Shown: positions 13,722 to 56,663 of the stretch, piece by piece | How positions within the stretch are numbered: position 1 is the stretch's first letter | How the letters are laid out: the number at the start of each line of letters is the position of its first letter | Origin: Gemmatimonadota bacterium | Lineage (GTDB): Bacteria > Gemmatimonadota > Gemmatimonadetes > Palauibacterales > Palauibacteraceae | Reading direction: 5' to 3' | NCBI GenBank assembly: GCA_039587445.1 | Contig: JBDHIM010000019.1 | Span: 1,728 to 65,727 of the forward strand | Length of the DNA: 64,000 nt | The notes under the pieces: generated by a model | What the model was told of the DNA's origin: nothing | The model's database searches: none | What the model saw: the letters and a program-made list of their open reading frames with translations, nothing else | Translations under genes and position numbers: made by a program

Positions 13722-13810
13722 ACGTCCCTCCTCGCACCGATGCTCGGCCCTGCAGCCGGTCCCGGCCCCTCACGGGGCGTCTTTTCGTCTAGCTTTCTAT
13801 CCGTTCGATG

Positions 13811-15498: not shown

Positions 15499-15499
15499 G

Positions 15500-16443: not shown

Positions 16444-16514
16444 TACCCTCTCCCGCTCATGTGCCTGGCGCCAAGTGCTCGAAGTGCCACCCTCTCAAAG
16501 CGACCGCCGCCCAT

Positions 16515-18272
16515 TCAGTGTCCCGCCGGCGACACGACATCCGGTCGTTCGTTCTGCGCGAGCCAATCCTTGTCGGTGACATCCGGGTGGCTGTACTCGT
16601 GCGGCCCGTGGTAGACGACAGGGGCCTGCTCCCAGTTGCCGTGCTTGGGCGGCGAGGGGGTCTGCCACTCCAGGCTCGTCGCATTCCACGGGTTGGGCGG
16701 TGCCCTCTCGCCCCGGAACATGCTCCCGAAGAAGTTGATGGCGAAAATGACGCCCGTCGAGAAGAGTGCGAACGCGCTGATCGTGATCAGCAGGTGCGTC
16801 CCCTGGAGATCGGCTGTGTGCGTATAACCCGTGGTGTCGTACAGGCGGCGCATCATCCCGGCGAGCCCCTGCGTGTGCATCGGGAAGAAGGCGAGATTGA
16901 AGAAGATGAACGTGAGGGCGAAGTGGATCTTGCCCCAGCGCTCGTTCATCATCCGCCCGAACATCTTCGGGAACCAGTAGTAGATCGCGCCGAAGATTGC
17001 GAAGAGCGCCCCGCCGAAGAGCACGTAGTGGATGTGGGCCACGATGAAGTAGGTGTCGTGGATGTAGATGTCGAAGGGCGCCGACGCCATGAAGATCCCG
17101 CTCAGCCCTCCGATCACGAACAGCATCACGAACCCGATCGCGAACAGCATGGGCGTGTGGAAGTGGAGATTCCCCCTCCACATCGTGCCCATCCAGTTGA
17201 AGGTCTTGATCGCCGACGGCACCGCGATCACCAGGGTCGAGACCATAAAGCTGGTGCCCAGCACCGGGTTCATGCCGCTCTGGAACATGTGGTGGCCCCA
17301 GACGATGAAGCCGAGAAAGGCGATCGCCACGATCGCGCCCACCATCGCCTTGTAGCCGAACACCGGCTTTCGTGAGCCGGCCGAGAGGATCTCGGATACG
17401 AAGCCCATCGCCGGCAGGATGAGGATGTAGACCTCCGGGTGTCCGAAGAACCAGAAGAGGTGCTGCCACAGCAGCGGCTGGCCGCCGGTTTCGGGGAGGA
17501 AGAAGTGCGTCCCAATTGTCTGGTCGAACAGGAGCATGATCAGGCCGCCCGAGAGAACCGGCATGGCGAGCAGGCCCAGGATCGCGGTGACGAACAGCGC
17601 CCAAACCGTCAGCGGCATCCGCGTCCACAACATCCCGGGAGCACGCATGTTGATCACGGTGGTGATGTAGTTCGTGGAGCCCAGAATCGAGGAAAGACCC
17701 AGCAGCACAAGGCTCACTATCCACATCTGCTGGCCCATCGACACCCCGCTGTACTCCGGCATCCCGCTGAGCGGCGCATACGAGGTCCAGCCGGCGCCCG
17801 CCGCACCTCCCTCCACCGCGAAGCTCGCCAGGGCGATCAGGCCCGACGGCACCGCAATCCAGAAGGAGAGCATGTTCAGGCGCGGGAACGCCATGTCCGG
17901 GGCGCCGATCTGGAGGGGGATCAGGTAGTTCGCGAACACACCCACCAACAGCAGCATGATCGCGAAGAACACCATGAACGTCCCGTGCATGGTGACGAGC
18001 GAGATGTAGAACTCGGGAAGCATGATCCCGTCGGGCGCCATGGTCTCGGGGAACAGCCCGCCGAAGGGCATGGGCCGGCCGGGCCACGCGAGCTGCCAGC
18101 GCATCAGCATCGCCAGCAGTCCACCCACCAGCAGGAAGAAGAGGCTCAAGAAGAGGAACTGGATCCCGATGACCTTGTGGTCCGAGGAGAAGATGTACTT
18201 TCGGATGAAGGACATCTCGTGATGTTCCTCGACGACGGGGATCCCCGTCGGCTCGGCTACGATCGTCGCCAT
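16515..18272 (-). CDS. ctaD: cytochrome c oxidase subunit I (A-family heme-copper oxidase)
   Basis: 585 aa; canonical motifs (WFFGHPEVYILILP, HHMF, VAHIHYVLF). Confidence 0.97.
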   Translation of the reverse strand: MATIVAEPTGIPVVEEHHEMSFIRKYIFSSDHKVIGIQFLFLSLFFLLVGGLLAMLMRWQLAWPGRPMPFGGLFPETMAPDGIMLPEFYISLVTMHGTFMVFFAIMLLLVGVFANYLIPLQIGAPDMAFPRLNMLSFWIAVPSGLIALASFAVEGGAAGAGWTSYAPLSGMPEYSGVSMGQQMWIVSLVLLGLSSILGSTNYITTVINMRAPGMLWTRMPLTVWALFVTAILGLLAMPVLSGGLIMLLFDQTIGTHFFLPETGGQPLLWQHLFWFFGHPEVYILILPAMGFVSEILSAGSRKPVFGYKAMVGAIVAIAFLGFIVWGHHMFQSGMNPVLGTSFMVSTLVIAVPSAIKTFNWMGTMWRGNLHFHTPMLFAIGFVMLFVIGGLSGIFMASAPFDIYIHDTYFIVAHIHYVLFGGALFAIFGAIYYWFPKMFGRMMNERWGKIHFALTFIFFNLAFFPMHTQGLAGMMRRLYDTTGYTHTADLQGTHLLITISAFALFSTGVIFAINFFGSMFRGERAPPNPWNATSLEWQTPSPPKHGNWEQAPVVYHGPHEYSHPDVTDKDWLAQNERPDVVSPAGH

Positions 18273-18310
18273 ATCACGCTGCGCCTTTCTCTCGTCTCAT
18301 CTCGCCCCCC

Positions 18311-19081
18311 CTACATCCCGCCGGCGGAGTGCTCATGCCTGGCTTCCTGTCCGTCGTCCACGTCGTTGCCTCCGGAACCGGCGGTCGCCGCCACCGCCGT
18401 CGGCTGGCCGGGGTCAGTCCGCACCGCGATCTGCTCGTCGAGCCACGCCTCGTAGGCCTCGGGCTCGTGGATCCTCACCCTCGCTCGCATCCGGTAGTGA
18501 CCGAGCCCGCACAGCTCCGCGCAGCCTATCTGGTAGTCGCCCGCCTTCGTGGCTTCGAACCAGACCGGGATGGTCATCCCCGGCACGGCATCCTGCTTCA
18601 CCCTGAGTTGTGGGATGAAGAAGGAGTGCAGCACATCCTCGGACTCCAGCCAGACCAGGATCGGGCGGTTGGCCGGGAAGTGGAGCTGGTTGCGGGTGGA
18701 AAAGTCATCGCTCGTGCCGAGCACCTCATCGGCACCGGCGTAGGTGACGTTCCACTCGAACTGCTTCGCGCTCACCGCTATGTGCAGCGATTCGGAGGGC
18801 GCCGAGTTACGTCCCTTGATCTGAGCCCACACGTTGGCGCTGTACAGACCGAGAGCGACCATGGCCAGCGCCGGTACGGCCGTCCACAGGATCTCCAGGC
18901 TCTTGCTCCCGTGGGTGTAAAAGGCTCGCTGGCCCTCACGCCGCCGGTACTTGATGCAGAACCAGATGATTCCGACCTCGACCAGCACGAAGGCGATCGC
19001 GGTCACGACCGTGATCACCCAGAAGAGGGCATCGATCTTCCCGCCATACGTCGCGATATTCTCAGGAAGCGACCAGTTCAA
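18311..19081 (-). CDS. ctaC: cytochrome c oxidase subunit II (CuA; no fused cytochrome c domain)
   Basis: CuA site CAELCGLGHYRM; two N-terminal TM helices. Confidence 0.93.
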   Translation of the reverse strand: MNWSLPENIATYGGKIDALFWVITVVTAIAFVLVEVGIIWFCIKYRRREGQRAFYTHGSKSLEILWTAVPALAMVALGLYSANVWAQIKGRNSAPSESLHIAVSAKQFEWNVTYAGADEVLGTSDDFSTRNQLHFPANRPILVWLESEDVLHSFFIPQLRVKQDAVPGMTIPVWFEATKAGDYQIGCAELCGLGHYRMRARVRIHEPEAYEAWLDEQIAVRTDPGQPTAVAATAGSGGNDVDDGQEARHEHSAGGM

Positions 19082-19146: not shown

Positions 19147-20028
19147 CTAGTCGCCGGACTGCTCGCGCACGGCGGTGATGCTGCCGTCATCGGCATGCTT
19201 GATGATCAGCGGGTCACCGAGCGGCACCGCGTTCCGGGCCATGCCGGCGTTGAAGGTGAAGCTGACCTCCGCCGTCGCCCCTTCGCCGACCGTGACGTTG
19301 GTGGTCTGGGCTCCGAAGAGCTCGTGCCAGGCCTCCACCACGTAGTCGCCGGGTGGAAGGTTCGGAAGCGAGAAGGAGCCGTCGCCTCGGCTCACGGCGT
19401 AATACGGGTGGTCGACGACGCCGACGTACGCGCTCATCCAGCCGTGGACGTCGCACTTCACCGGGATCATCACCTCGGCCATCCCGAAGTCGCGCGTCGT
19501 CTCCATGCCGGCTTGCGGCTGGCTGATGTTGAAGCCTCGGTTGATGCTCGGCTGGGAGTTGATGTTGTGGAGAATCGGATCGCTGTTCCGAATCAACAGG
19601 GGCTGGTCGACCTGAACACCCAGGATGTGCGGGTGGTAGCGGCAGTTCTCCTGGTCCAGCACGGCGGGCTGTGACGGAGTCGGGAAGCCGGCGCCGAGCC
19701 CCTCTTTCACGTAAACGAAGACGTTCCCGAGCTTTCCGTCGCTGCTCACGAGCGCATTCTGGGTCAGGGCGCCCTCGCCGGGATATGCGTTATTGCACTC
19801 CGGCTCCTCGGCCATGTCGATCCGTTCCGCGGCGGGTGCCTCGCCCTCGAACGCGATGAGGCCACTGATCGCTCCGGCCGTGGCCGGATCTACGACCGGC
19901 GCGGCCGTCTCACCGCCCGCATCCGCCGCTGTGTCTCCGTCTCCGGTATCGGCATCGCCTCCACCTCCACACGCCCACACGAGGCCGGCGGCCGCGACCG
20001 TGGCCAACAGGCCAGTCTTCTCCAACAT
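19147..20028 (-). CDS. lipoprotein with cupredoxin (type-1 copper) domain plus CarboxypepD_reg-like domain
   Basis: Start ATG 20028 (MLEKTGLL..) is preceded by AGGAGG; lipobox VWAC. T1-Cu ligand pattern HN ... C-x2-H-x2-M (ILHNINS; CDVHGWM). C-terminal GSFSLPNLPPGDYVVEAWHE beta-sandwich motif. Confidence 0.65.
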   Translation of the reverse strand: MLEKTGLLATVAAAGLVWACGGGGDADTGDGDTAADAGGETAAPVVDPATAGAISGLIAFEGEAPAAERIDMAEEPECNNAYPGEGALTQNALVSSDGKLGNVFVYVKEGLGAGFPTPSQPAVLDQENCRYHPHILGVQVDQPLLIRNSDPILHNINSQPSINRGFNISQPQAGMETTRDFGMAEVMIPVKCDVHGWMSAYVGVVDHPYYAVSRGDGSFSLPNLPPGDYVVEAWHELFGAQTTNVTVGEGATAEVSFTFNAGMARNAVPLGDPLIIKHADDGSITAVREQSGD

Positions 20029-20066: not shown

Positions 20067-20459
20067 CTATCCTCGATAACTCTTCTGAGCACGCCTGACG
20101 GCGAACATCCCGAGCCCGCCCGTCACCAGAAAGGCGACCAACGGCGCCATGAAGACCGCGTTTGATGGCGGTGGCTGCAGGCCGACGAAGTACCAGGCGG
20201 AGATGGACCCCCGGCTGCCCGTCTCGCCGCTGCTCCCGTCCCAGGCAAAGAAGGCGATCGGGATCGGAGATCCCTCCCTGAACGAGAGCAGGCCATCGTC
20301 GGCCGCGGCCAACGGTCGACGAAAGACGACGCGCCACCGACCGGCCTCCCACTCCGCACTCGCCGTGAGACCGGCGCCCGAATCTACGACCTCGGTCGTG
20401 CCGAGGCCCGTCGCCCGCCCCTCGACCGCCCCTCGCCTGCTATGCCACAGCACGACCAT
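20067..20459 (-). pseudogene. C-terminal part of an EB_dh (ethylbenzene-dehydrogenase-like heme-binding) domain plus TM anchor; apparently split from the upstream ORF by a frameshift
   Basis: VVLWHS ... GRWRVVFRRPL ... IAFFAWDGSSGETGSRGSISAWYF matches the second half of EB_dh domains. The first half lies in the 20440-21573 ORF in another frame. Confidence 0.6.
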
Positions 20460-21573
20460 CCGCCGAGGTCATCGGAAACTGGATGGCCAAAAGGTCCGGG
20501 AGCGGCTCCGCCGGGATCGGCGACTCATCCGAGTAGAGGGCCCCGGCAATCTTGGCCTGCCACTCCTGCCAGCCAGGATCGGGACTGTTCGAGGGGTCGT
20601 GCCACTCGACGCGCAGAGCCAGCTCCGCTCCATCGTGGACGCCCTGCACCCATACGCCATCGACCGTCGGGGCGAACTGCCGTGGCGCCTCGACGATCTG
20701 GCCGACGAGCGGAAAATAGAAGCTCGGCAGATCGTCCCAGGAGGCATCGTTCGGGCCGTCCGGCAGCTGCTCGCGCCGCTCCACCCTCACGACCTCTTCG
20801 AGCTCCGGCGCCTTCGCGGGCCCGAGGCCTGCTACGTAATGAGCCAGGTTCCAGAGATCCTCTTCGGTGACGACGCCCGCTTCCAGCGCGTCCTGGTTGG
20901 AGGGCATGGGGGTGCCATCCACGCCGGTGAGGAAGCGCGTGTGGATCGCGTCGGCACCCACTCCGCCGTTGAAGAGCCAGGGCTCGGAGAGATCCGCGGC
21001 GCGGATCGGGAACCCCCTCCAGTCCTCGAGCGTCGGCGCCGATCTCCCGTCACCCCTTCCCTGCTCGCCGTGACACCGCGCACACTCGAGCGTGCCGTAT
21101 GTCTCTCGTCCGGGCCCGGCCCGATCGGCACCGCCACCCGGATCCGCGGATCGCTGAAGCACCTCGGGAGTCTCCCGCTCGAAGAACGGCGAGAAGCTCT
21201 TGACGAAGGCGACGACGTCCCGCTTCTCCTGGTCGCTCAGATTGGGCCAACCCGGCATCGCCGTCCCCGGAAGGCCGTCCCGCATGACCCGCATCAGATC
21301 GTCGTCCGTCGGGAGCTCTCCGCTCGCGGTCGTCCGTATCTGGTAGCGCGCGCCGACGAAGTCTCTCGGTCTCGGCAGCATCCGCGCGGCGGCCGGGCCG
21401 TCTCCCCGACCCTCCGCGCCGTGGCACTCCAAGCACCAGGCGCGATAGATCGCCTCTCCGTTCGCCGCATCCTGCGCAGGCGCCAGGCGCACCGGCAGAA
21501 GCAGCGCCACCAGCACCGCGATCCCCACCCCCACCCACCGCACGCGAGCCCCACGCAGCGGCAGCGGGGGCAT
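20440..21573 (-). CDS. secreted diheme cytochrome c fused to the N-terminal part of an EB_dh domain
   Basis: Signal peptide from ATG 21573 (MPPLPLRGARVRWVGVGIAVLVALLLPVRLAPAQD). CxxCH twice (CLECH, CARCH). EB_dh-like LRVEWHDPS ... LLAIQFP. Confidence 0.75.
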   Translation of the reverse strand: MPPLPLRGARVRWVGVGIAVLVALLLPVRLAPAQDAANGEAIYRAWCLECHGAEGRGDGPAAARMLPRPRDFVGARYQIRTTASGELPTDDDLMRVMRDGLPGTAMPGWPNLSDQEKRDVVAFVKSFSPFFERETPEVLQRSADPGGGADRAGPGRETYGTLECARCHGEQGRGDGRSAPTLEDWRGFPIRAADLSEPWLFNGGVGADAIHTRFLTGVDGTPMPSNQDALEAGVVTEEDLWNLAHYVAGLGPAKAPELEEVVRVERREQLPDGPNDASWDDLPSFYFPLVGQIVEAPRQFAPTVDGVWVQGVHDGAELALRVEWHDPSNSPDPGWQEWQAKIAGALYSDESPIPAEPLPDLLAIQFPMTSADGRAVA

Positions 21574-21704
21574 TGAACCGGGCAGGCTGCGGGCTCCGAC
21601 TGAGCGAGCGTCGCAGCGACGATGCGAAGACCCCGCAGCGAAGCGAGGAGGCTTCGCGTCCAAAGCGCGCAGCGAGCGAAGCGGAACCCGGAGCCTGCCC
21701 ACCA

Positions 21705-22511
21705 TCAGTGCCCCTCGCCTTCGTTGGATTCCTCCCACGTCCGAGGCGTCGAGCCGGAGCGCTCGTAGATGAAGAGGGTTACGGCCCAGATCTCATCGGC
21801 CGTGAGGAGATCGTCCCACGCCGGCATCGCCGAGTTCCAGGGGGCTCCTTCGACGGGCAGCCCCGGTCCCCCCGTGGCGATCCTCCAGAAGACGTAGCTC
21901 TCGGTCAGCTGGCTGATCGTCCCGTTGTCCGTGAAGTTGGCCGGAACCGGGTTCAGAGCGTGAGCCGCCGGTCCTTCGCCGTCCAACCGGTCCCCGTGGC
22001 AGGGCATGCAGTTCTGGACGTACACCGTGGCTCCAACCGCCAGGTGCTCCTCGAACGACCCGTGCTCGCGCAGCGGGTTCTCCAGCCCGGTCAGAGAGAT
22101 CGTTTCGCCCCGGAAGGTGATCTGGTTGGGCGGCGCCGGATGGATGGAGCGGAGCGAAGGCGGCGCACCGACGTCGGCCCGCACGCGGCCGTACGTCAGA
22201 AACCCGACCAACAGCGGGAACGCGACGAGCAGAGCGACACGGAACATCCGCTTATCCGGCTCCACCATCACCTGTCTCAGCGGGTCCTTGAACCGGGTCC
22301 AGCGATCTTCGTTCGTGCTCACGTAAAGGAGCAGAGCCACGATGACGGTGAGCATGTACTGGAGCAGCACGCTCGAGGGGACCGGCGCGCTGTGAACGCC
22401 TATGGCCGGCAGCAGATAGCCGATGCCGAACTTGAACAGGAGGTACGAGCCGACGAGCACGCCTAGCGCCTGCCAGAATGGGTGGCCGAGGTAGGAGCCC
22501 GCTCGACTCAT
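21705..22511 (-). CDS. membrane-bound monoheme cytochrome c (3 N-terminal TM helices)
   Basis: ATG 22511 (MSRAGSYLG..) is preceded by AAGGGAG. Single CMPCH heme site in the C-terminal soluble domain. Confidence 0.75.
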   Translation of the reverse strand: MSRAGSYLGHPFWQALGVLVGSYLLFKFGIGYLLPAIGVHSAPVPSSVLLQYMLTVIVALLLYVSTNEDRWTRFKDPLRQVMVEPDKRMFRVALLVAFPLLVGFLTYGRVRADVGAPPSLRSIHPAPPNQITFRGETISLTGLENPLREHGSFEEHLAVGATVYVQNCMPCHGDRLDGEGPAAHALNPVPANFTDNGTISQLTESYVFWRIATGGPGLPVEGAPWNSAMPAWDDLLTADEIWAVTLFIYERSGSTPRTWEESNEGEGH

Positions 22512-22548
22512 CCCGTCAGCTCCCTTCTCATCTCGTCCGGATCCGCTC

Positions 22549-23337
22549 TCATCGTTCTTCTGCCAGGAAGCGAACGAGGGTCTCGAGCTGCCCGGCAGAG
22601 AGCTGATCGCCGAAGTTCGCCGGCATCGTTCCGGCCACGGCCTCGAAGCCCTCTGCCGTGTCGGCATTGGGGAGAAGGATCGAATGCCGGATGTACTCCG
22701 GGTCCAGCCGACCGGCCATCTCGTCCAATCTGGGCCCGAGCGCCACCCCCTCTTCGCCGAGCTGATGGCAGGCTAGGCAGGTGCTCGCCCTCAAGAGCTC
22801 CACGGGATCCGTGACGGCGGGGTCGATCCCCGGGCCGGCCGCCGCGCCCGTCCCGCCGGCCCCGGCCGCGGCGCTTCCCGCACTCTCCGCGGGAATGTCC
22901 GCCGCGGTAACCGTGATCTCTCCTCCCTGATTCTCGAGGAAGGCCACGAGCGCCCAGATCTGCGCCTCAGAGAGGATCCGCCGCATGTCCGGCATGATTG
23001 GCTGGAAGCCGTCGATCACGAAGACACCCGGCTCGGTGAGGGATTCGTACAGGTACTCCTTGCAGGCCAGGCCCTCTCGGCGGGTCGCGCAGGTCGTGCC
23101 CGATACCCCGACCAGGTCGGGTGCCCGCGTGCCGAGCCCGTGGCAGGCGGTACAGCCGCCCGCACCCACGTAGAGCCCCTCTCCGATCGCGGCGAGTTCC
23201 TCGGGCGTGACGTCGGCCCCGATCGTCGTTTCCTCGGGCACCTCCGATGCGACCTGCGGGATCATGTTCGCGACCGCCGTATAGACCGCCAGCGTGCCGA
23301 TCACGATCAGCAGCACCGTCAGGTTCGTCCGAAGCAT
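22549..23337 (-). CDS. membrane-anchored diheme cytochrome c
   Basis: N-terminal TM, CTACH and CLACH heme motifs. Starts 3 nt after the CydA-like stop. Confidence 0.8.
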   Translation of the reverse strand: MLRTNLTVLLIVIGTLAVYTAVANMIPQVASEVPEETTIGADVTPEELAAIGEGLYVGAGGCTACHGLGTRAPDLVGVSGTTCATRREGLACKEYLYESLTEPGVFVIDGFQPIMPDMRRILSEAQIWALVAFLENQGGEITVTAADIPAESAGSAAAGAGGTGAAAGPGIDPAVTDPVELLRASTCLACHQLGEEGVALGPRLDEMAGRLDPEYIRHSILLPNADTAEGFEAVAGTMPANFGDQLSAGQLETLVRFLAEER

Positions 23338-23340: not shown

Positions 23341-25059
23341 CTACGCCTCCGGCCCGGCGTAGTGGGCCGGCTCGGCGCCAGCGCTCAGGTCCATCTCGGA
23401 GGAATAGCGGGAGCTGACCGGGCTGGCGGCCGGCTGCTCGGCCAGTCCGCCGAGCCAAAAGATGAAGCCGACGAGCGCGAAGAAGATGAGGACGCAGATG
23501 CTGATCATCGTCGCGGCAGGACCAAGCGCCGGAGTGAACGCCTGGGGGCTGGTGTCGCGGATCACCTCGAAGACGTGCCAATGCTGCCGGATCCCGCTGC
23601 GCGCGAAGCCCATGAGACCCATGAGCCAGGTGAAGGTGACCGCCAGGATGAAGAGGGCATACTGCGAGCGCGCCGGCATCTGGCCCCAGCGTATGGCCCC
23701 CCGGGACGTCGCGCCCCTCATCATGAACACATCCAGACCGATGACGAAGAAGATGCAGGCGAGCACGGCGAGCACCTGGTACACGCTGAATCCGATCCGC
23801 ACGATCGCGGTCACGAAGTAGCCGTAGATCCCGTAGAAGAGGACGATCGCCGCCGAGAGCACGAACGCCGCGCCCTGAAGCATCGTCCCCGTCTTTGCCC
23901 ATGAGACGACCGGCTGCTTGTTCGCCCGCCGGTACAGGAGGAAGGAGAGGAACGTCGTCAGGATCATCAGGTTGACGGCCGTGTTCTTCGCGCTCATCAC
24001 GCCCAGGACGCCGAGGAACGGGTGGTGCGTGCCGCCCATCGCCGCGATCTCGCGTCGGTTGGCGATCATCGTATGCGGCGTGGCCCAGACGATCGTCCCG
24101 ATGACGAGGACCAGCAGCATCCACTTGATGTAGGGCATGAAGCGCTCTGCGCCCGGTATCCGGCCCATGCCGACCCAGAGGTAGTAGTTGCCGGTCAGGA
24201 ACAGGACGCCGATGAGGAACGCCTGGATGATCCACAGCCAGCTCATGAAGCCGCCCATCATCGTGATCCCCATCTGCTGGTTGAACTCGTAGATCTCGCG
24301 GCCCAGGTAGTAACCGGCGAAGGGGAGCACGATGAGCGCCCCGATCGCGATGAAGTTCCCGACGTAACCCATCCAGTCGTAGTGGGCTCTCTCCTCGTCG
24401 GTGCGTGACGCGAGGAACCGGTACGCCGCGTACGCCCCCACCACGGCGCCCCCGAACACCACGTTGGCGATGAGGCGATGGACGTTGATCGGCATCCACG
24501 TCGCGTTCGCGATCGCGCTCCAGAGCCGCACCGTCTGCGGAGCCGTGTCCGCCGCGAGGTCTCCCGGCGGGCTCATCATGAAGGTGAGCCAGCTGTTGGC
24601 GATGAACATCACGATGGTGCCCCAGACGTTCAGCGCCACGCCGAGGCCGAGATGGACCTTCTTGGAGAGACCCTTCTTCCAGCGATCCCACCCGTAGTAG
24701 TAGAGGTAGAGGGTGAAGGACTCGAGGAAGAAGAGCCCGGCGTACACCCACATCGACGGAGCGAAGATCGTCGTCAGATACGCCCAGAACCGTGGGTAGA
24801 GAGTGGCGAGGACGAAGACGAGGATCGCGCCCCAGATCGCGGTTGCGCTGTACGCGACCACGAGGAGCCGGGTGAACTCCTTCGCCAGCTTGTCGTACCG
24901 CTCGTCCCTACCGAAGATGCCGATCGCCTCGACGACGATCGCGAACATCGGAACGCCGAGCACGAACGCCGCGAACATCAGGTGCACCTGGGCGGCGATC
25001 CAGATCGCCCCGCGGGCCCCGATCAGCGGAAAGTCCCCGTACGCGGGGGCTTCGGCCAT
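23341..25059 (-). CDS. cytochrome bd subunit I (CydA)-like membrane protein, 13-14 TM, Q-loop-less, no CydB partner
   Basis: Conserved CydA signatures: TM1 His (AAQVHLMFAAF), FFLESFT (E99 region), TM5 His (PINVHRLIANVVFGG). ATG 25059 is preceded by AGGAGG; alternative GTG at 25131. Confidence 0.85.
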   Translation of the reverse strand: MAEAPAYGDFPLIGARGAIWIAAQVHLMFAAFVLGVPMFAIVVEAIGIFGRDERYDKLAKEFTRLLVVAYSATAIWGAILVFVLATLYPRFWAYLTTIFAPSMWVYAGLFFLESFTLYLYYYGWDRWKKGLSKKVHLGLGVALNVWGTIVMFIANSWLTFMMSPPGDLAADTAPQTVRLWSAIANATWMPINVHRLIANVVFGGAVVGAYAAYRFLASRTDEERAHYDWMGYVGNFIAIGALIVLPFAGYYLGREIYEFNQQMGITMMGGFMSWLWIIQAFLIGVLFLTGNYYLWVGMGRIPGAERFMPYIKWMLLVLVIGTIVWATPHTMIANRREIAAMGGTHHPFLGVLGVMSAKNTAVNLMILTTFLSFLLYRRANKQPVVSWAKTGTMLQGAAFVLSAAIVLFYGIYGYFVTAIVRIGFSVYQVLAVLACIFFVIGLDVFMMRGATSRGAIRWGQMPARSQYALFILAVTFTWLMGLMGFARSGIRQHWHVFEVIRDTSPQAFTPALGPAATMISICVLIFFALVGFIFWLGGLAEQPAASPVSSRYSSEMDLSAGAEPAHYAGPEA

Positions 25060-25142
25060 AGCCTCCTGAGCGAGCCCGGGTTCCAGGGCGAGGAGCAAAA
25101 GCGCCGCGGCGCCGGCCGCCGCTCGAAGCACGCCGCGGGGAC

Positions 25143-26534
25143 TCAGCGCTCGCCTCGCAGGAAGAACGGCATCCGCTTGGAGAAATCCACCGGCATCTCC
25201 TCGCGGACCCGTTCCATGAGCTCGGGCGTCACGACAGACTCCCCGGTGCGCCGGGCAAACTCCTCCAGCCGCCTCACGACCACCCCCCGCACGAATGACG
25301 GCACGCGGGCCAGCCGCGCCTCGGCCTCCGGGCTCCACTTCAGCTCCGGAGCAGCCGCTGTTCCGTATGATGCGACGCGAGGCAGGACCGGCTCGGCTTC
25401 GCCGGTCGGCTCGTAGGCGCACGACTCGTCGGAGCCCAGGTAGTCGCCGCTCTCGGCAAAGGCTCTCGCCCTGCAGCCACCGCATATCAAACGGTACTCG
25501 CAGCGTCCGCACTTGCCCTCCAGCTGGCCGGTGCGGATCTCTCCGAATACCGGCGAGTCCCGCCACACGTCCGCGAAGGCGTCTCGGCGCAAATCGCCGG
25601 CGACGACCGGCAAGTAGGGACAGGGCGTCAGCTTCCCTTCCGGCGTGATGCGGCAGTACTGGACGCCGCACGGGCAGCGGGTCGCGTAGTTGAGCAGGGG
25701 TGACTCCGGATCGGCCTCGAACACGTGCCGCATGATCTGAGGCTGGCACTTCGAGCGCACCATCATGACCCCCCGGTACTCCTTCTGGAGGTCGGCGAGC
25801 TCCGCCAACACCTCTTCGTTCTCACGCGGCCCGAGACCGCGCATCCGCTCGCCGCGGCCCGTGGAGACGAGAAAATAGAGATTGAAGCACACGGCTCCGG
25901 TCGATGCGGCCCAGTCGGCGAGGCTCCTGACCTCGTTCCGGTTGCCCCGCGTCAGCGTCATCTGAACGACGAAATCCAGCTGTGCTCGGCGCAGACGCTC
26001 CACGGCGGCCAGCGTCTCCTCCAGGGCGGCCTGGCCGTGTCGGAAACGGTCGTGGTACTCCGGGTTCAGCGAATCCACGCTGACCGCGACCCCGCGCACG
26101 CCGGCGTCCTTGAGTGACGCGATCCGCTCGGCCGTAAGGCCGATACCGTTCGTGCCTATCACGACGGTGGCGCCGCCATCGGCAGCGTGGCGGGCGATGG
26201 ATTCGAGGTCCTCCCGGACGAGCGGCTCTCCCCCGGACAGAACGAACATCGGAGAGGGGCTGATCTCGAGGATCTCGTCGGTGATCCTCATGCACTCCTC
26301 CGTCGAGAGCTCGCGGTCATCGCTCTCCCAGGATCCGGCCGAGATGTAGCAGTGCGCGCAGGCAAGGTTGCAGCGGCGGGTGAGATTCCACGCGACGACG
26401 TGAGGAATCGCCTCGGGCGATCGGGCATGTGAATCGGCGGCTTCGCTTCTCTCGGCGGATGAGAGCCGGACCCAGTCCTCGGCGGGGGCCGCGGCGGAGG
26501 CACGAGCCGGGGAGACGCCGAGAGCTTCGCTCAA
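25143..26534 (-). CDS. radical SAM/SPASM enzyme of the NirJ/AhbC/AhbD type with a C-terminal PCP_red domain
   Basis: CNLACAHC (Cx3Cx2C). NirJ-like blocks (VVAWNLTRRCNL, VLSGGEPLVREDL, GTNG, VSVDSLNPEYHDRFR). SPASM Cys cluster (CPCGVQYC...CPY...CGRCEYRLICGGC). C-terminal WSPEAEARLARVPSFVRGVVVRRLEEFARRTG. TTG start overlaps the upstream stop (TTGA). Confidence 0.88.
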   Translation of the reverse strand: MSEALGVSPARASAAAPAEDWVRLSSAERSEAADSHARSPEAIPHVVAWNLTRRCNLACAHCYISAGSWESDDRELSTEECMRITDEILEISPSPMFVLSGGEPLVREDLESIARHAADGGATVVIGTNGIGLTAERIASLKDAGVRGVAVSVDSLNPEYHDRFRHGQAALEETLAAVERLRRAQLDFVVQMTLTRGNRNEVRSLADWAASTGAVCFNLYFLVSTGRGERMRGLGPRENEEVLAELADLQKEYRGVMMVRSKCQPQIMRHVFEADPESPLLNYATRCPCGVQYCRITPEGKLTPCPYLPVVAGDLRRDAFADVWRDSPVFGEIRTGQLEGKCGRCEYRLICGGCRARAFAESGDYLGSDESCAYEPTGEAEPVLPRVASYGTAAAPELKWSPEAEARLARVPSFVRGVVVRRLEEFARRTGESVVTPELMERVREEMPVDFSKRMPFFLRGER

Positions 26535-28525
26535 CGGCGGGTTTCCTCCTCGGCCATGAAGCTCTCCATAGCGCGCCTCGCCTCCTCGGGGGTGGCCGTC
26601 TTGAAGTCCACCGGACAGTCGGACATCTCTCGTTCCACATCCCGAATCGGACAGCGCGTCACGCCGGAGGCCTTCGCCTCATCGATGAAGCGGCGCATCT
26701 CCTCGCTCATTCCGTCGAGGCCGGCCGCCTCCGCCTTCACCTGTTTCGCTTTCAGCTCGTTGAACATCACGAGCATCGTGTCCATGTCGAACTCGTCGGC
26801 CTCGATCATCGCCTGCTTGTTCTCGTCCATGACGCGAGTCGTGACGCGCCACAAGCCCGCCTCACGTGTGAAGCTCTCGACGGTGTTCCGGGCCAACGGC
26901 CGGGCGATCAGCGGGACGAGCCCCAGGCGCGCGAACGCCTCGTGCGTCCAGATGATCGGGTCGGCTTCCGTGCGCGGGCGCATGCTCACCTGGCCGGTCA
27001 CCGGGCAGCGCGTCTCCACCGCCATCGGCTCGGCGAACTCGTCGTCATCGGCCGTCACGACGACGGTTCTCTTCATCGATTCTTCCGCTTTGACCTCGGC
27101 GAGCGCGAACTCTTCGGCGTCGCCGATCCCCATGATGAGCTGCATGTGAGTGGGGAGGAGCTTCTGGATGGCACGGTCCAGCCAGGCGCTCGTCACCGTG
27201 GGGATCCCGGGGGGAGTGTACTCGGCGTGCTCCAGCACGTACTCCTCGACAGCTTTACGCGCGATGCCGAGCGCGAACGGGGGGACGCGGAGGATTCGAA
27301 CCTCGGCATCGGGCGCCCACTCGAGCCCCTGCTCGCCATCCTGCTCGATCCAGGGGATCTCCTCCGGCCGAACGTCCGTCGTGCCGATCAGCAGAACGTT
27401 GCAGGGGGCGAGTCGCAGGACGTTCTCCGCCTGGCTTCCCATCGCCGTGCCCTCGATCCGGTGGGCGCCGTGACGAGCCAGGACGATCAGCGTCGGATCG
27501 ATCTCCTCGGTCCATTGCATGACGACCTGGAACGGCTTGCCGATCAGGATCTGCGTCTCTAGCTCGACGTCCGGGAACTCCTCGGCCATCGCCTCGGCCC
27601 GCTTGATGTTGGCCTGCGCGAGCTTGAGAAGGCCCTTGTCGATGATGTTGTTGTGAAGCTCTTCCTGCTCCTCGAACTTGAAGACGCGCGACGCCTGGAC
27701 GGAAAGCACATCCTTGATGTTGTGAAAGACGGCGTGGTGATACTCGACGTCGAAGGCGCTGCAGACGAAGAGCCTCGCCCCGAACTCCCGCGCCATCTCC
27801 AGGACCTGGCGCATGGCCTTGTAGCAGTACGCCGATCCATCGACGCACACGATCCATCGCCCGCCGGCCAGCGGCCGGTCGTCCCGGATCAGCAGCATGT
27901 CCTTCTCGACGCCGCGAGCGACGCGGGAGGCGACGCCGCCGATCTGCGACAACGGCTGGATGCCGATGCCGTGCGCCCCCATGACGAGAAGGTCGTAGTC
28001 GCGGCCCGAGCTTCCCGCCAGCTTCTCCTCGTGCTCCTCGTCCTCGGCGACGAGACGGCCGTTCTCGCCGACCCTGACATCACTGCGCACTCGCTCGCCA
28101 CCATCGTATCCGGCAGCGATGTTCGGGTCGAAGCCGATCAGGCTGGGGAGGCAGCCGCGGCCCTCGTTCGCCTCCCTGATTATCTCCTCGTAGTTGATGC
28201 CTTCAAGGAGCTGCCGGGTCATTGGCACCTCCGCCTCTTCGCACCGTAAGCTCACTTGATCCAAGAAGCTATCGGAGATCAGCTGAAGGCCTTTCTCGAT
28301 GAGCTTGTCGTGGATCTTGCGCTGGCGCTTGATCTCATCGGGCGTCTGAAACTGCGCCGGTAGACCGGTCTCCAACTGGCGGAAGCGGACGTCGTGCAGG
28401 CGGGCGGCGTAGACGTGGTTCGCGGTGAGGTGACCTTCGGAGACGCTGCAAAGCTCAAGCGCCCGGTCGACCGCCCACGTCGAATGGTGGGAGTTGTCGA
28501 CCGGTACGAGAAGCTCTCGATACAA
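26531..28525 (-). CDS. tandem universal stress protein (USP) domains fused to two PCP_red-like modules and a C-terminal CP-motif region
   Basis: USP1 aa 1-215 (LLVPVDNSHHS ... VMGAHGIGIQPLSQIGGVASRV). USP2 aa 223-381 (WIVCVDGS ... ARHGAHRIEGTAMGSQAENVLRLAPCNVLLI). PCP_red-like aa 401-456 and 524-570. TTG start with GGAG upstream. Confidence 0.8.
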   Translation of the reverse strand: MYRELLVPVDNSHHSTWAVDRALELCSVSEGHLTANHVYAARLHDVRFRQLETGLPAQFQTPDEIKRQRKIHDKLIEKGLQLISDSFLDQVSLRCEEAEVPMTRQLLEGINYEEIIREANEGRGCLPSLIGFDPNIAAGYDGGERVRSDVRVGENGRLVAEDEEHEEKLAGSSGRDYDLLVMGAHGIGIQPLSQIGGVASRVARGVEKDMLLIRDDRPLAGGRWIVCVDGSAYCYKAMRQVLEMAREFGARLFVCSAFDVEYHHAVFHNIKDVLSVQASRVFKFEEQEELHNNIIDKGLLKLAQANIKRAEAMAEEFPDVELETQILIGKPFQVVMQWTEEIDPTLIVLARHGAHRIEGTAMGSQAENVLRLAPCNVLLIGTTDVRPEEIPWIEQDGEQGLEWAPDAEVRILRVPPFALGIARKAVEEYVLEHAEYTPPGIPTVTSAWLDRAIQKLLPTHMQLIMGIGDAEEFALAEVKAEESMKRTVVVTADDDEFAEPMAVETRCPVTGQVSMRPRTEADPIIWTHEAFARLGLVPLIARPLARNTVESFTREAGLWRVTTRVMDENKQAMIEADEFDMDTMLVMFNELKAKQVKAEAAGLDGMSEEMRRFIDEAKASGVTRCPIRDVEREMSDCPVDFKTATPEEARRAMESFMAEEETRR

Positions 28526-28599
28526 TCGCCGCTCCAGTCCTGTGGGTTCCGGCGGACCTTCTGCCCCGAGATCCCCTGCCCGGCTTACAGATCGCCGAC

Positions 28600-28628
28600 T
28601 ATATAGCGGCGCCCTGGATCGAAGTCAA
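28600..28628 (-). promoter_or_regulatory. near-consensus sigma70-type promoter (TTGACT-N17-TATATA) upstream of the USP gene
   Basis: Minus strand reads TTGACT (28628-28623), a 17-nt spacer, then TATATA (28605-28600), in the 110-nt gap between the ferredoxin and USP genes. Confidence 0.4.
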
Positions 28629-28635
28629 AAGGGCG

Positions 28636-28890
28636 TCACGGAACGATCTGGCGACCATTTCCGTCCAGCACCCGAATCGCGTCGACCGGACAGGCAGCGC
28701 AGGCACCGAGAAGATTCGTCGCATCTACCGATTCCGGCGCGTCGAAGGTCGCGATCCCCTCGTCGTCGAGTCGAAACGCCCTGGGGCCTTCGGTGACGCA
28801 GTCCTCGAAGCCCACGCAGATCCTCCGGTCGATGCAAACGAGGTAACCGTGTAGCGTCCGCCGCTCCTCCGCGATCTCCTCCCCGGTCAC
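28636..28890 (-). CDS. small single-cluster ferredoxin
   Basis: 84 aa from GTG 28890 (GGAGGG 10 nt upstream, 2 nt after the preceding stop). Cys pattern CIDRRICVGFEDC ... CAACP; ferredoxin-like V-x-x-GPRAF segment. Confidence 0.7.
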   Translation of the reverse strand: MTGEEIAEERRTLHGYLVCIDRRICVGFEDCVTEGPRAFRLDDEGIATFDAPESVDATNLLGACAACPVDAIRVLDGNGRQIVP

Positions 28891-28892
28891 GC

Positions 28893-29372
28893 CTACATGC
28901 CCTCCAGGCCGAGATCCGTGCGCGCCCGGTCCATGGTCTCGGGAGTGATCTCGTTGATTCCGTGCTCCTTCGCGTAATCGGTGTAGATGCGCTTCACCAT
29001 TCCGCGCACGAAGGAAGGAACGGCTTCGAGACGCCGCGTGGCCGCCTCGCTCCACTCTACCGGCGAGGTCCCGAGCGAGGTCCCGGGCGATGTCTCGGTC
29101 CCGGGGGAAGTCACCGCCGGCTCCGCGAAGGCCTCGTCGCGCCCGCCGTCGATAGAGCTGCGCACCAGCTCCAGCGGCTGCTCCGGCACCTCCCGTCCCC
29201 CGATCTTGATGCCGAGTGACGACACGACCTGCGTCTCCATCGGATTCGTGAGCATAGCCACCTCGCGGCCGCAGGCGGGGCAGCGGAAGACGGCCGCCAG
29301 GGTGCCGTCACCGGGAAGCTGTCGCTCTCCGAAGCTCATCTGTTCGTCGCAATCGATGCAGAGGAACTTCAC
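28893..29372 (-). CDS. Zn-ribbon protein with a C-terminal PCP_red domain
   Basis: N-terminal CxxC...CxxC (CIDC ... CPAC). C-terminal WSEAATRRLEAVPSFVRGMVKRIYTDYAKEHGINEITPETM. GTG 29372 overlaps the mrp stop (GTGA); TTG 29387 is an alternative start. Confidence 0.65.
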   Translation of the reverse strand: MKFLCIDCDEQMSFGERQLPGDGTLAAVFRCPACGREVAMLTNPMETQVVSSLGIKIGGREVPEQPLELVRSSIDGGRDEAFAEPAVTSPGTETSPGTSLGTSPVEWSEAATRRLEAVPSFVRGMVKRIYTDYAKEHGINEITPETMDRARTDLGLEGM

Positions 29373-30250
29373 GGCGCACCGTCCCAATCCAGCCGCTCGG
29401 CGAGGGCGACGATCTCCCGGCCGGCGCGGGACGCCAGCACCCCGTTCATGTCGCCTCGCTCGGCGCAGATCGCGGCTTCGGCGTCGAACGGAATGCGAGC
29501 GAGCAGCGGGAGATCCAGCTCTCGGGCCAGTTCCTCGCCGGCATCACCAGGATGCAGCGGGCCGACCGCACCGCAGCCCTCGCACGCATAGCCGGACATG
29601 TTCTCCACGATCCCGGCGATGGGCAGACCACGATCGCCGGCGGCCTGCAAGGAGCGAGCAACCGCCGCCTTGGAGGCCGATGTCGGGATCGTCACGCCGA
29701 TGACTCGGCTGCGCTGTGGGACGAGCTCGGCCAGCTCCGCGAGGCGCTGGGTGCCCGGAGGAAGGTCGACGACCAGCACGTCCAGCTCACCCCACACCAC
29801 GTCCGAGAGGAACTCCCGAAAAGCTCCTCTCTCGAGCGACCCGAGCCACAGGGAGCCATCCGCGGCCGGCCCCCGCCAGCGGAGAGGCTCCCCGTCTTCC
29901 AACAGCAGGTCCGTGGAGAACACCCTCAATCCGGCAGAATCGACCGGTGGAACGACGCCGTCATCCGTGACGGAGAGCGAACGACGAGGGAGCCCGAGCA
30001 GCGACGGCGCCGTGGGGCCGTTGAGATCCGCATCCAGCAATCCCGCCGAGCTTCTACCGCGAGCAAGGGCCGAGGCGAGCGTCGCCGACACGAAGCTCTT
30101 GCCCACCCCACCCTTCCCGCTCGCTACGCCGAGGACCGTCGTCACAACCCTCATGCGGCTGTCCACGCGGCGACGCTGATGGGCGAGCTGGTCGCCGAGA
30201 CCGGAGCGGTCCGGGCCCTCGAGATCGGCGTAGGTGCGGATCTTCCTCAC
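29369..30250 (-). CDS. apbC: Mrp/NBP35/ApbC-family Fe-S cluster carrier ATPase
   Basis: Deviant Walker A GKGGVGKS; CEGC cluster-bridging motif; 293 aa. Confidence 0.9.
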   Translation of the reverse strand: MRKIRTYADLEGPDRSGLGDQLAHQRRRVDSRMRVVTTVLGVASGKGGVGKSFVSATLASALARGRSSAGLLDADLNGPTAPSLLGLPRRSLSVTDDGVVPPVDSAGLRVFSTDLLLEDGEPLRWRGPAADGSLWLGSLERGAFREFLSDVVWGELDVLVVDLPPGTQRLAELAELVPQRSRVIGVTIPTSASKAAVARSLQAAGDRGLPIAGIVENMSGYACEGCGAVGPLHPGDAGEELARELDLPLLARIPFDAEAAICAERGDMNGVLASRAGREIVALAERLDWDGAP

Positions 30251-30260
30251 GTCCGTACGG

Positions 30261-30641
30261 TCAGAGGTCCCAGGCTGCTCGCGCCAGCATCCACAGGTTG
30301 ATGAGGACGACGACCAGCGCCGTGACGTAGAAGGCAGGCGGAAGAACGCCGGGATCGCGCAGGAAGGCGGCGTTGATCAGGGCGGGCAGGCGGAGAGCGT
30401 GCAACGCCCAGATCGCTCGCGCAAACCAAGCGTTCTGCCAACGCCACAGTCCCCAGAAGACCACGGCCAGGATCGCGGCACCGATCAGGAGCCACAACCA
30501 CCCGGGACCGCGAGCGCCCGGCAGCATGCCCGCCCGCCAGAGCGTCCAGACGGCTGCCTCGTAGAGCAGCCCGACGTGAAGGTATACGAAAGCGGCCTGT
30601 CGGAACTTCGCGGCGCGCTCTGGAGCGTGAATCGGGGACAT
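30261..30641 (-). CDS. 4-TM membrane protein, unknown function (first gene of the mrp-radical SAM operon)
   Basis: 126-aa hydrophobic ORF ending 10 nt before the mrp start. Confidence 0.55.
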   Translation of the reverse strand: MSPIHAPERAAKFRQAAFVYLHVGLLYEAAVWTLWRAGMLPGARGPGWLWLLIGAAILAVVFWGLWRWQNAWFARAIWALHALRLPALINAAFLRDPGVLPPAFYVTALVVVLINLWMLARAAWDL

Positions 30642-30759: not shown

Positions 30760-30960
30760 ATGTCGCTCATCGGATTCCACAAGCTGCTCATCGCCACGGC
30801 GATCCTTTTCTGCGCTCTCTTCGCGATCTGGCAGGGGATCATCTTCACGAGAACGGGCGCCGCCTTGAACGTCGCGCTGGCGGCCGCATTCGCCTTCGCC
30901 GCGGCGGGACTCACCTACTACCTGGCGAACCTGCAACGCTTCTTGAAGAGGGGTTCCTGA
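30760..30960 (+). CDS. small 2-TM membrane protein
   Basis: ATG 30760 directly after GGAGGTGAC; MSLIGFHKLLIATAILFCALFAIW...; 66 aa. Confidence 0.5.
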   Translation: MSLIGFHKLLIATAILFCALFAIWQGIIFTRTGAALNVALAAAFAFAAAGLTYYLANLQRFLKRGS

Positions 30961-30967: not shown

Positions 30968-31903
30968 TCAGGCGCCGGCTCCGTGAGCCCCACTCACCAG
31001 CAGTTCATCCGCCCCGCGGGCCCGTAGCTCCGCCGCCAGGAGCCGGCCGAGGCCGACCGCATCGCCAACGGGGCCTCTCGTGGAGGCCCGAATCGCCTGG
31101 CTACCGTCCTCCGACAGCACCGCGGCATGCAAGGTGAGGTCTCCTCCCTTCCGCACCGCCAAAGCGCCGATCGGAACCTGACATCCGCCGCCGAGAGCGG
31201 CCAAGACCGAACGCTCGCAGTCCGTCTCGGCACGCGCGCGCTGATCCTCGATCGCATCCAACAGGCCATGCACGCGCTCGTCGTCCGCCCTGCCCTCGAT
31301 CCCTAGCGCTCCCTGGCCCGGTGCGGGCAGCCACGCCGGCACCTCGAGGGACCGCATCGTGGCCGAGAGCCTCCCGAGGCGCTTCAGGCCAGCCGCGGCG
31401 AGGAGCAGCGCGTCATACTCGTCGCGCTCGAGCTTGGCCAGCCTCGTCTCGACGTTCCCTCGCACGTCGAGGGGCCGGCATTCGGGTCTGGCATTGAGCA
31501 GCAGGGCTCGGCGGCGCAGCGAGGAGGTTCCGACGCGGGCCCCATCCTTCAGCTCGGAAAGCCGGACTCCTTCCCTGGAAACGAGAACATCGGCCGGATC
31601 TTCCCGCTGTGGAACGGCGAGCAGGGCCAGGCCGGGCGGCAGAGCGGTGGGCAGGTCTTTCAGCGAATGCACGGCGACGTCGAGCGCGCCGTCGAGGATC
31701 GCGGCTTCGAGCTCGGCCGTGAACAGGCCCTTGCCGCCGATAGCCGGAAGGGGAACGTCACGCTTCCGGTCCCCCTCGGTGTCCATCCAGACATTGCGCA
31801 CCTGGAGCTCGGGCCATGCGGCGCTCAAGAGCCTCGCTACCCATTCCGCTTGCGAGCGCGCAAGCGCCGATTTCCGGGAGCCTATCAGAAGGGTCTCAGG
31901 CAT
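30968..31903 (-). CDS. hemC: hydroxymethylbilane synthase (porphobilinogen deaminase)
   Basis: LLIGSRKSALARSQAEWV N-terminus and full-length HemC pattern. ATG 31903 preferred; GTG 31921 possible. Confidence 0.92.
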   Translation of the reverse strand: MPETLLIGSRKSALARSQAEWVARLLSAAWPELQVRNVWMDTEGDRKRDVPLPAIGGKGLFTAELEAAILDGALDVAVHSLKDLPTALPPGLALLAVPQREDPADVLVSREGVRLSELKDGARVGTSSLRRRALLLNARPECRPLDVRGNVETRLAKLERDEYDALLLAAAGLKRLGRLSATMRSLEVPAWLPAPGQGALGIEGRADDERVHGLLDAIEDQRARAETDCERSVLAALGGGCQVPIGALAVRKGGDLTLHAAVLSEDGSQAIRASTRGPVGDAVGLGRLLAAELRARGADELLVSGAHGAGA

Positions 31904-53968: not shown

Positions 53969-55402
<1,434 letters not shown>

Positions 55403-56557: not shown

Positions 56558-56663
56558 TTTGTCCTTTAAGCCCGCTTTGGAGCCCGATGTGAGCCCGCTC
56601 CGGGCCTACATCAGACCCGTCCGGGGTTTCGCGGTAAGAAACGCGCGTGAAGGTATCGGACCT

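Follow-up and report, generated by a model that had tools for sequence, protein, structure and literature searches.

On the minus strand of a 64,000-nt stretch of Gemmatimonadota DNA (the window; contig JBDHIM010000019.1, assembly GCA_039587445.1), positions 25143-30641 are occupied by a compact block of six genes. In order of transcription, they encode a small membrane protein (TM4), an Mrp/NBP35-type ATPase, a short protein that joins a zinc ribbon to a PCP_red domain, a ferredoxin, a tandem-Usp protein with PCP_red modules and a radical S-adenosylmethionine (SAM) enzyme with SPASM and PCP_red domains, and they are followed by the gene of a CydA-like subunit of a bd-like oxidase. From the sequence comparisons below, the block may tentatively be read as an oxygen-independent haem-propionate decarboxylase system of the AhbD type, equipped with its own Fe-S cluster and electron supply and serving the adjacent oxidases; that the system acts on some haem-type tetrapyrrole is probable.

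All six open reading frames (ORFs) are present with the order, coordinates and junctions that a first-pass annotation of the window had given them (Table 1). The Mrp stop codon overlaps the GTG start of the zinc-ribbon gene (GTGA), a 2-nt gap precedes the GTG of the ferredoxin gene, and the TGA of the Usp gene overlaps the TTG start of the radical SAM gene (TTGA). Public gene calls on two near-identical contigs of metagenome-assembled genomes (MAGs) give the same six products, of 126, 293, 159, 84, 664 and 463 aa, and Pfam bears out the domain assignments (Radical_SAM/SPASM/PCP_red, Usp, zinc ribbon-PCP_red, ferredoxin and Mrp). The distance to the CydA-like gene, formerly set at 11-83 nt, is 11 nt past the radical SAM stop by the public start at window 25131, which yields a 596-aa product. 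Start and stop codons are coupled in two pairs, Mrp with the zinc-ribbon PCP_red gene and Usp-PCP_red with the radical SAM gene, and this fits two sub-modules that would be joined via PCP_red. The 110-nt gap between the ferredoxin and Usp genes may be the site of an internal promoter: TTGACT-17 nt-TATATA can be read there by eye, and a consensus scan of the region for promoters and terminators returned nothing above chance and left this site uncalled.

The radical SAM protein matches Radical_SAM (PF04055, 8.4e-30), SPASM (PF13186, 8.2e-08) and PCP_red (PF08369, 1.5e-14). Among curated NCBIfam models, it scores best against NirJ2 (TIGR04055, 286.1 bits) and AhbD (TIGR04545, 275.3 bits), then against TIGR04053 (248 bits); NirJ (TIGR04051) reaches 170.7 bits and AhbC and the peptide maturases no more, with PqqE at 120 and MftC at 121 bits. 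Its description as NirJ/Ahb-like thus stands, the nearest families being NirJ2 and AhbD and not the peptide or sulfatase maturases. There are no nir genes in the parts of the window examined, and no ahbA, ahbB or ahbC near the radical SAM gene. The cluster motif C55x3C59x2C62 (CX3CX2C) is invariant in 17 homologues, as are all eight SPASM cysteines (C263-x23-C287-x17-C305-x36-C342-x2-C345-x5-C351-x2-C354-x17-C372), whose spacing fits exactly the full SPASM motif of AhbD, CX20-33CX17CX36-37CX2CX5CX2CX17-35C (Fix et al., PMC10452713). Residues 1-40 are unconserved and modelled with low confidence, and the core begins at about residue 44. The best 120 matches share an identical three-domain architecture at 64-91% identity, and identity within the family is still 64-77% across orders, as expected for a core enzyme; relatives occur in at least 467 GTDB species genomes.

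A HMMER scan of 1.84 billion representative sequences returned 912 proteins below 1e-30, and a neighbour-joining tree was built from 106 full-length representatives, with AhbD references picked by profile score, not by experiment. In this tree, the PCP_red-bearing proteins (one to four modules, 40-64% identity to the query) form a single clade, recovered exactly in 67 of 100 bootstrap replicates and to within three taxa in 98, and PCP_red is absent from every protein outside it. The adjoining clades score best as AhbD or NirJ2, one of them above the NirJ2 cut-off. The separate position of the clade and the failure of the block enzyme to reach any curated cut-off therefore mark it as a distinct paralogue within the AhbD-like group.

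The PCP_red modules, helical and about 45 residues long, occur in three block proteins, four modules in total, and score 54.2, 52.6 and 51.8 bits against a gathering score of 32.5, above threshold as the first-pass annotation had supposed; they also match the stand-alone PDB entries 2l09 and 2kru. In the 664-aa protein, Usp is matched at 1.1e-32 over two to three stretches and PCP_red at 4.6e-14 over two, and its tail, which ends in PVDF and bears a weak likeness to the tail of the radical SAM protein (E 0.013), is possibly a third, degenerate module. The 159-aa protein (PCP_red 8.3e-14) has its ribbon cysteines at Cys5, 8, 31 and 34, and its Nitrospinota counterpart, of 149 aa, directly follows Mrp. 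The idea that PCP_red is the protochlorophyllide-binding unit of BchB is not supported by the literature consulted: the contacts cited for that protein (helix 398-420; Asp290, His394 and Leu426) precede the PF08369 region (profile about 458-510 of 512), and the published DPOR papers and reviews searched contain no statement on the role of this region in BchB or ChlB, be it in pigment binding or in docking to BchL.

Two of the remaining block proteins, Mrp and the ferredoxin, would serve cluster and electron supply. Mrp matches ParA/NUBPL (PF10609) at 2.6e-54 (184.7 bits), has the CxxC pair C223/C226 and scores below the NCBIfam cut-offs of both MrpORP (NF041136, 187 bits vs 450) and ApbC (126 vs 348); in the loci examined, it always adjoins the small PCP_red protein. 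The ferredoxin (Fer4_13 7.4e-07, Fer4_15 2.1e-06) is kept in the cluster, at a position permuted among relatives. TM4 has no Pfam or NCBIfam match, and its homologues (50-93% identity) are neighbours of Mrp or of the small PCP_red protein in many Gemmatimonadota loci, at a place that varies. A kinship of TM4 with DUF420/CtaM, considered since DUF420 fills the equivalent position in Nitrospinota, was rejected when BLASTP came back empty.

A small helical module repeated on three proteins would also suit a hand-over chain, in which the AhbD relative had become a HemW-like haem carrier or insertase for membrane cytochromes and PCP_red served for docking or for holding haem. A precedent is HemW, which belongs to the radical SAM proteins and chaperones haem for respiratory enzymes (PMC10114771), and the module adjoins several apo-cytochrome genes. 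Nevertheless, we consider a chaperone improbable: the catalytic cysteines, both auxiliary cluster sites included, are all invariant, a dedicated ferredoxin and Fe-S loader argue for redox turnover, and haem binding by PCP_red is without evidence.

Gene neighbourhoods were compared over ±10 kb per locus, with contexts annotated by phmmer and a custom PCP_red hidden Markov model. In 80 genome loci, mostly from Gemmatimonadota, the CydA-like gene directly follows the radical SAM gene wherever the sequence suffices to tell, save for four loci (65 of 69); COX1 lies downstream on the same strand in 53 of 55, and 53 of 54 loci have both Mrp and the zinc-ribbon PCP_red protein. The four exceptions to CydA-like adjacency (L014, L015, L068 and L078) are MAGs labelled Thermoanaerobaculia or Acidobacteriota. 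The block's genes stand in a different order in L014 (Thermoanaerobaculia), and ferredoxin, Mrp, zinc-ribbon protein and TM4 change places from lineage to lineage. In many relatives, genes for an ABC ATPase and an ABC-2 permease are inserted after the ferredoxin/zinc-ribbon genes and ahead of the Usp gene (L040 5696-7524, with equivalents in L017, L142, L143, L145 and L161), a pair that is absent from the window.

A metagenome scan seeded with distant members of the PCP_red clade added 35 loci arranged as in Gemmatimonadota, and three arrangements of another kind. Arrangement B consists of a CarboxypepD_reg protein, Usp-PCP_red, the radical SAM protein and HemY; in two of its loci (L110 and L132), this series comes shortly after a CydA-like gene and genes for cytochromes c, and downstream of it lie a PAS kinase and a sigma-54 regulator. 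Arrangement C has a Usp protein with three PCP_red modules followed by the radical SAM protein, no CydA-like gene within 10 kb, and as neighbours an ODP protein, a UbiE-type methyltransferase, a B12-radical SAM protein, a CopD-like protein and a RoxA-like cytochrome c. HemJ was considered as an identity for the 174-aa protein encoded after its radical SAM gene and found no support, the matches being weak ones of the CopD-like kind and none of them to HemJ. Arrangement D is the radical SAM-PCP_red gene alone. Among other lineages, Nitrospinota show the series cytochrome c, DUF420, Mrp, PCP_red protein, Usp-PCP_red and a radical SAM protein with three PCP_red modules, with no CydA. In a deltaproteobacterial MAG, the Usp-PCP_red/radical SAM pair has a cytochrome b gene nearby and lacks a CydA-like neighbour over 10 kb. 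A Nitrosomonadales MAG has a cytochrome c, the pair and then HemY, and in a further MAG, the pair is transcribed divergently from a CydA-like gene and from two genes for cytochromes c.

In nearly all of these contexts, the Usp-PCP_red gene, with one to four PCP_red modules, sits directly upstream of the radical SAM gene. Given this variety, the minimal conserved unit is therefore Usp-PCP_red plus radical SAM-PCP_red; Mrp and the small PCP_red protein are a second, optional sub-module, and the bd-like gene is a frequent, non-obligatory partner that co-occurs in rearranged form in other lineages (L014, L086, L110, L132 and L162). The synteny with the CydA-like gene that had been predicted for related genomes is real within Gemmatimonadota, and its exclusivity is not, the pair occurring elsewhere without that gene. 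In four unrelated lineages (L014 11413-12948, L081 12445-15666, L110 14101-18341 and L132 13932-17931), the module is flanked by sigma-54-dependent response regulators, in most cases accompanied by a PAS or other sensor kinase.

Haem-synthesis genes recur beside the module. Upstream of the block, hemC is found in 23 related loci; in the window, its end lies 326 nt from the block start, close to the 330 bp first estimated, and because an opposite-strand ORF of 66 aa intervenes, it is taken as a neighbour and not necessarily as a co-transcribed gene. In six Gemmatimonadales genomes, the ferredoxin-Mrp genes are immediately preceded, on the same strand, by hemE-hemY-hemL, whose stops overlap, and the HemY of these genomes is nearer to HemY of Bacillus subtilis (196 bits) than to PPO of Myxococcus xanthus (143 bits). 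In the coproporphyrin pathway, the B. subtilis enzyme acts as coproporphyrinogen oxidase. At 9-10 metagenome loci of arrangement B, the gene immediately after the radical SAM gene clears the protoporphyrinogen-oxidase cut-off (246 vs 98 bits), and a haem O synthase is the last gene of the window array. AhbD occurs in coproporphyrin-pathway organisms that have no other Ahb enzymes, and can replace ChdC anaerobically (2026 review, PMC13564367).

These neighbours bear on the question of whether the substrate is a tetrapyrrole at all. Most SPASM enzymes modify peptides or proteins, and the AlphaFold2 model of the block enzyme (predicted local distance difference test score 73) resembles PqqE, SkfB, SuiB and anSME, that is, the generic SPASM fold; the PDB holds no AhbD or NirJ structure. 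AhbD-likeness might thus be mere ancestry, with the enzyme acting on a protein (for example, by cross-linking or modifying a residue of the bd-like subunit or of a cytochrome c), a lipid or a quinone. A precedent is Gms (GMGT synthase), an AhbD homologue of 36% identity with an N-terminal COG4001 domain of about 100 aa, which acts on membrane lipids (PMC11214058), and arrangement C does place a UbiE-type methyltransferase and a B12-radical SAM gene beside the pair. Against such a substrate, the tetrapyrrole enzymes are favoured by more than 150 bits, the haem-synthesis neighbours recur in independent arrangements, and neither a precursor-peptide gene, a recognition element of ribosomally synthesized and post-translationally modified peptides, nor a COG4001-like lipid domain was seen, which leaves it a slim chance.

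Table 1. Features of the block and its surroundings in the window
Feature	Position	Strand	Basis
66-aa ORF with two transmembrane (TM) helices, between hemC and block	30760-30960	+	ORF, also in public annotation
hemC (porphobilinogen deaminase), upstream neighbour	30968-31903	-	PF01379, 4.5e-76
TM4, 126-aa four-TM membrane protein, first block gene	30261-30641	-	public call identical
Mrp/NBP35-type P-loop ATPase, putative Fe-S cluster carrier, 293 aa	29369-30250	-	PF10609
159-aa protein, N-terminal CxxC...CxxC ribbon and C-terminal PCP_red	28893-29372	-	Pfam
84-aa single-cluster ferredoxin	28636-28890	-	Fer4_13/Fer4_15
110-nt intergenic gap, ferredoxin/Usp	28526-28635	-	candidate internal promoter
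664-aa tandem-Usp protein, two clear PCP_red modules	26531-28525	-	Pfam
463-aa radical SAM/SPASM protein with C-terminal PCP_red	25143-26534	-	Pfam, NCBIfam
596-aa cytochrome bd subunit I-like (CydA-like, OR-N-like) membrane protein	23341-25131	-	PF01654, public start
Three cytochrome c genes	20067-23337	-	Pfam, CxxCH counts
Dihaem cytochrome c	22549-23337	-	Pfam, CxxCH
Monohaem cytochrome c with TM helices	21705-22511	-	Pfam, CxxCH
Dihaem cytochrome c with EB_dh, frameshifted in the window	20067-21705	-	Pfam, public calls
293-aa CarboxypepD_reg/fn3_3 protein	19147-20028	-	Pfam
COX2, COX1, COX3, COX4, haem O synthase-DUF420 fusion	14119-19081	-	Pfam
Haem O synthase-DUF420 fusion	14119-15522	-	TIGR01473 272 bits (cut-off 210); DUF420 138 bits
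323-aa membrane protein	12798-13769	-	
SAM synthetase and S-adenosylhomocysteine hydrolase	53969-56605	-	

The genes that follow the block are rich in haem proteins. The CydA-like protein matches PF01654 (Cyt_bd_oxida_I, 3.3e-24) over residues 16-268 only, its N-terminal 250 residues or so, and has many TM helices and no CxxCH motif. The subunit is extremely conserved among its homologues in 89 loci, and seven residues are invariant in 90 sequences, His26, 136, 194, 226, 346 and 495 and Glu113; His26, His194 and Glu113 are equivalents of the canonical residues, and the four extra histidines (136, 226, 346 and 495) could be additional haem or copper ligands. Bd-like oxidases of the OR-N family are presumed in the literature to serve nitrite oxidisers as their main terminal oxidases and occur widely in Gemmatimonadota; no member is reported as purified, and what cofactors they hold is not known.

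Three cytochrome c genes come next. Relative to contig L172, which is 99.98% identical over 13.9 kb, 50 nt are missing at window 20449/20450, which frameshifts the third; the L172 version has 562 aa, two haem c motifs and EB_dh, and the difference is either one of assembly or a real deletion. The CarboxypepD_reg protein contains KCDVHGWM (C-x2-H-x2-M) with RYHPH upstream, a motif that resembles by eye a type-1 copper site, and it accompanies the Usp-PCP_red/radical SAM pair in two cluster types. The haem O synthase of the window is fused to DUF420, which exists as a free-standing gene in a Nitrospinota contig, directly upstream of the Mrp/PCP_red/Usp/radical SAM genes. Directly after the fusion gene comes that of the 323-aa protein, which has seven to eight TM helices, a two-fold internal repeat with a YTL(L/V)HF histidine in each half and no Pfam or NCBIfam match, and which is a candidate haem-binding membrane protein. 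No haem A synthase (CtaA) is recognizable among the array genes examined. The order bd-like gene, three cytochromes c, putative cupredoxin and COX2-COX1-COX3-COX4-CtaB resembles the alternative-complex-III/caa3 superclusters of other phyla, and instead of acting as a terminal oxidase, the bd-like/cytochrome c unit might serve to feed the haem-copper oxidase. The adjacent genes for SAM synthetase and S-adenosylhomocysteine hydrolase, 27 kb from the radical SAM gene, are probably there by coincidence.

Taking domain content, cysteine motifs, clade, synteny and haem-gene neighbours as observed, we infer the substrate, the direction of electron flow, the roles of PCP_red and Usp and a low-oxygen rationale as follows. 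By analogy with AhbD, SAM and the N-terminal [4Fe-4S] cluster would abstract a hydrogen atom at a side-chain propionate of the iron-tetrapyrrole substrate, the likeliest reaction being the O2-independent conversion of coproheme to haem b, with propionate decarboxylated to vinyl. The leftover electron would exit through the two auxiliary clusters, with the cis-encoded ferredoxin as the presumed electron partner, and the Mrp ATPase would load the three Fe-S clusters. PCP_red on the radical SAM, tandem-Usp and zinc-ribbon proteins may act as a shared docking unit that ties partners and sub-modules together. The nucleotide-binding Usp domains may render the complex regulatable, and together with the nearby sigma-54 two-component regulators, they suggest regulation, plausibly by energy or oxygen status. 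The product would supply haem to the bd-like/cytochrome c complex and to the cytochrome c oxidase, notably when O2 is too low for O2-dependent enzymes. Both the coupling to haem-rich respiratory genes (65/69; COX1 53/55) and the haem-gene context in several independent arrangements count in favour of an AhbD-type decarboxylase. So do the NirJ2/AhbD placement, the complete AhbD cysteine motif, the likeness of the Gemmatimonadales HemY to that of B. subtilis and the known part of AhbD as coproheme decarboxylase in organisms of the coproporphyrin pathway.

A number of points weigh against it. The enzyme stays below all equivalog cut-offs (500 for AhbD, 500 for NirJ2 and 515 for NirJ) and lies outside the AhbD clade of the tree, which suggests a specificity unlike that of AhbD. 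The near-universal Usp and PCP_red partners are unexplained by a plain haem b synthase, since canonical AhbD needs neither, and the docking role given to PCP_red is pure conjecture. Likeness to AhbD leaves the substrate unfixed because Gms, itself an AhbD homologue, acts on lipids. No ferrochelatase or ChdC was seen beside the block within the compared neighbourhoods. Finally, in L147, a HemN gene (37% identity to HemN of Escherichia coli, with the PRYTSYPTA and CxxxCxxCxC signatures) lies 2.8 kb after the HemY gene beside the radical SAM gene, so that at least this organism already has an oxygen-independent decarboxylase of the protoporphyrin route.

Some of the same facts would be accommodated by a dedicated tailoring system, in which the radical SAM enzyme starts from haem b, coproheme or a precursor and makes a modified haem that the OR-N-type bd-like oxidase specifically needs, and the PCP_red proteins pass this haem on to the membrane subunit. 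The radical SAM stop lies 11 nt from the CydA-like start, in an order kept across the 65 genome and the 35 metagenome loci, and their co-occurrence is regained, rearranged, in the distant L014, L086, L110, L132 and L162. The clade apart from AhbD and the failed cut-offs would follow from a new specificity, and next to the HemN of L147, a second haem b decarboxylase would be redundant; the four extra invariant histidines of the CydA-like protein, in a family whose cofactors are not known, could likewise be accounted for. On the other side, the pair occurs without a CydA-like gene within 10 kb in Nitrospinota, in the deltaproteobacterial MAG and at about 25 metagenome loci, no modified haem is known for this oxidase family, and the adjacency of the two genes may reflect mere co-regulation of haem supply and its consumers. 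Tailoring for the oxidase is therefore rather unlikely in our judgement. A bolder form of it, which we find more doubtful still, would have the PCP_red-tagged AhbD paralogue and its Usp, zinc-ribbon and Mrp partners form a haem-tailoring and delivery machine that makes a novel active-site haem for OR-N enzymes, for example, an iron porphyrin that is decarboxylated in part or altered otherwise in its side chains, with PCP_red serving outside photosynthesis as a general module for the hand-over or docking of tetrapyrroles.

The first-pass annotation had proposed that the block modifies, chaperones or inserts a haem-type cofactor by a pathway of its own. The tetrapyrrole link in that proposal is upheld by the haem-gene neighbours; the new tailoring pathway is not, as a plain AhbD role explains the data at least as well. 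None of the three outcomes that it had named as speaking against it was observed: the radical SAM protein does not group with a non-tetrapyrrole clade, PCP_red is not below threshold, and synteny is not lacking.

Full-text literature searches found no relevant prior description of the module, and the novelty lies in an AhbD-like enzyme that comes with an added domain, new to this group, and with obligatory partners. As a conserved and well-delimited accessory module with a haem-synthase paralogue at its core, it gives a concrete handle on the cofactors of OR-N oxidases. If the enzyme is a plain AhbD-type coproheme decarboxylase, the oxygen-independent end of the coproporphyrin pathway would extend to Gram-negative phyla, and the obligatory partner proteins would be new for AhbD. 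The module is also a first non-photosynthetic context for PCP_red, which is carried here by no fewer than three types of protein, one to four times on each, across several phyla.

Among known systems, AhbD, the haem b synthase of the sirohaem-dependent pathway, and NirJ2 of Firmicutes are closest, sharing with the block enzyme the radical SAM core, the full SPASM domain and the CX3CX2C and eight-cysteine spacing; the block enzyme differs in its C-terminal PCP_red (one to four in relatives) and in having, nearly always, a Usp-PCP_red partner. Gms is comparable in that an AhbD-like core acquired a further domain and a new role along with it, an example of how these enzymes diversify, but here, the extra domain is a C-terminal PCP_red and not an N-terminal COG4001, and the context is haem and respiration, not lipid synthesis. 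HemW and CgdH, of the HemN family, are likewise radical SAM proteins that act on or carry haem-pathway tetrapyrroles for respiratory enzymes, and the propionate-to-vinyl chemistry of CgdH is the same as that proposed for the block; they belong to another radical SAM subfamily and lack SPASM, and a true HemN co-occurs with the module in L147.

The C-terminal domain of BchB/ChlB in DPOR (PF08369) is the same module of about 45 residues, matched at E values of around 1e-14 in three block proteins, whereas the block has no nitrogenase-like catalytic domains and joins PCP_red to radical SAM, Usp and zinc-ribbon partners. Mrp shares a P-loop domain and a CxxC pair with the Mrp/NBP35/ApbC carriers, e.g. 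MrpORP, but spans only profile positions 3-228 of the 365 of MrpORP, the C-terminal part being absent, and is coupled to a PCP_red protein. The published OR-N oxidase papers searched do not mention accessory radical SAM, Usp or PCP_red genes. The CydA-like protein itself is like the OR-N family (Murali et al., bioRxiv 10.1101/2021.01.16.426971), judged by features and not against OR-N reference sequences, in that it keeps the N-terminal oxygen-site helices, has cytochrome c partners and is without a quinol-binding C-terminal part recognizable by Pfam.

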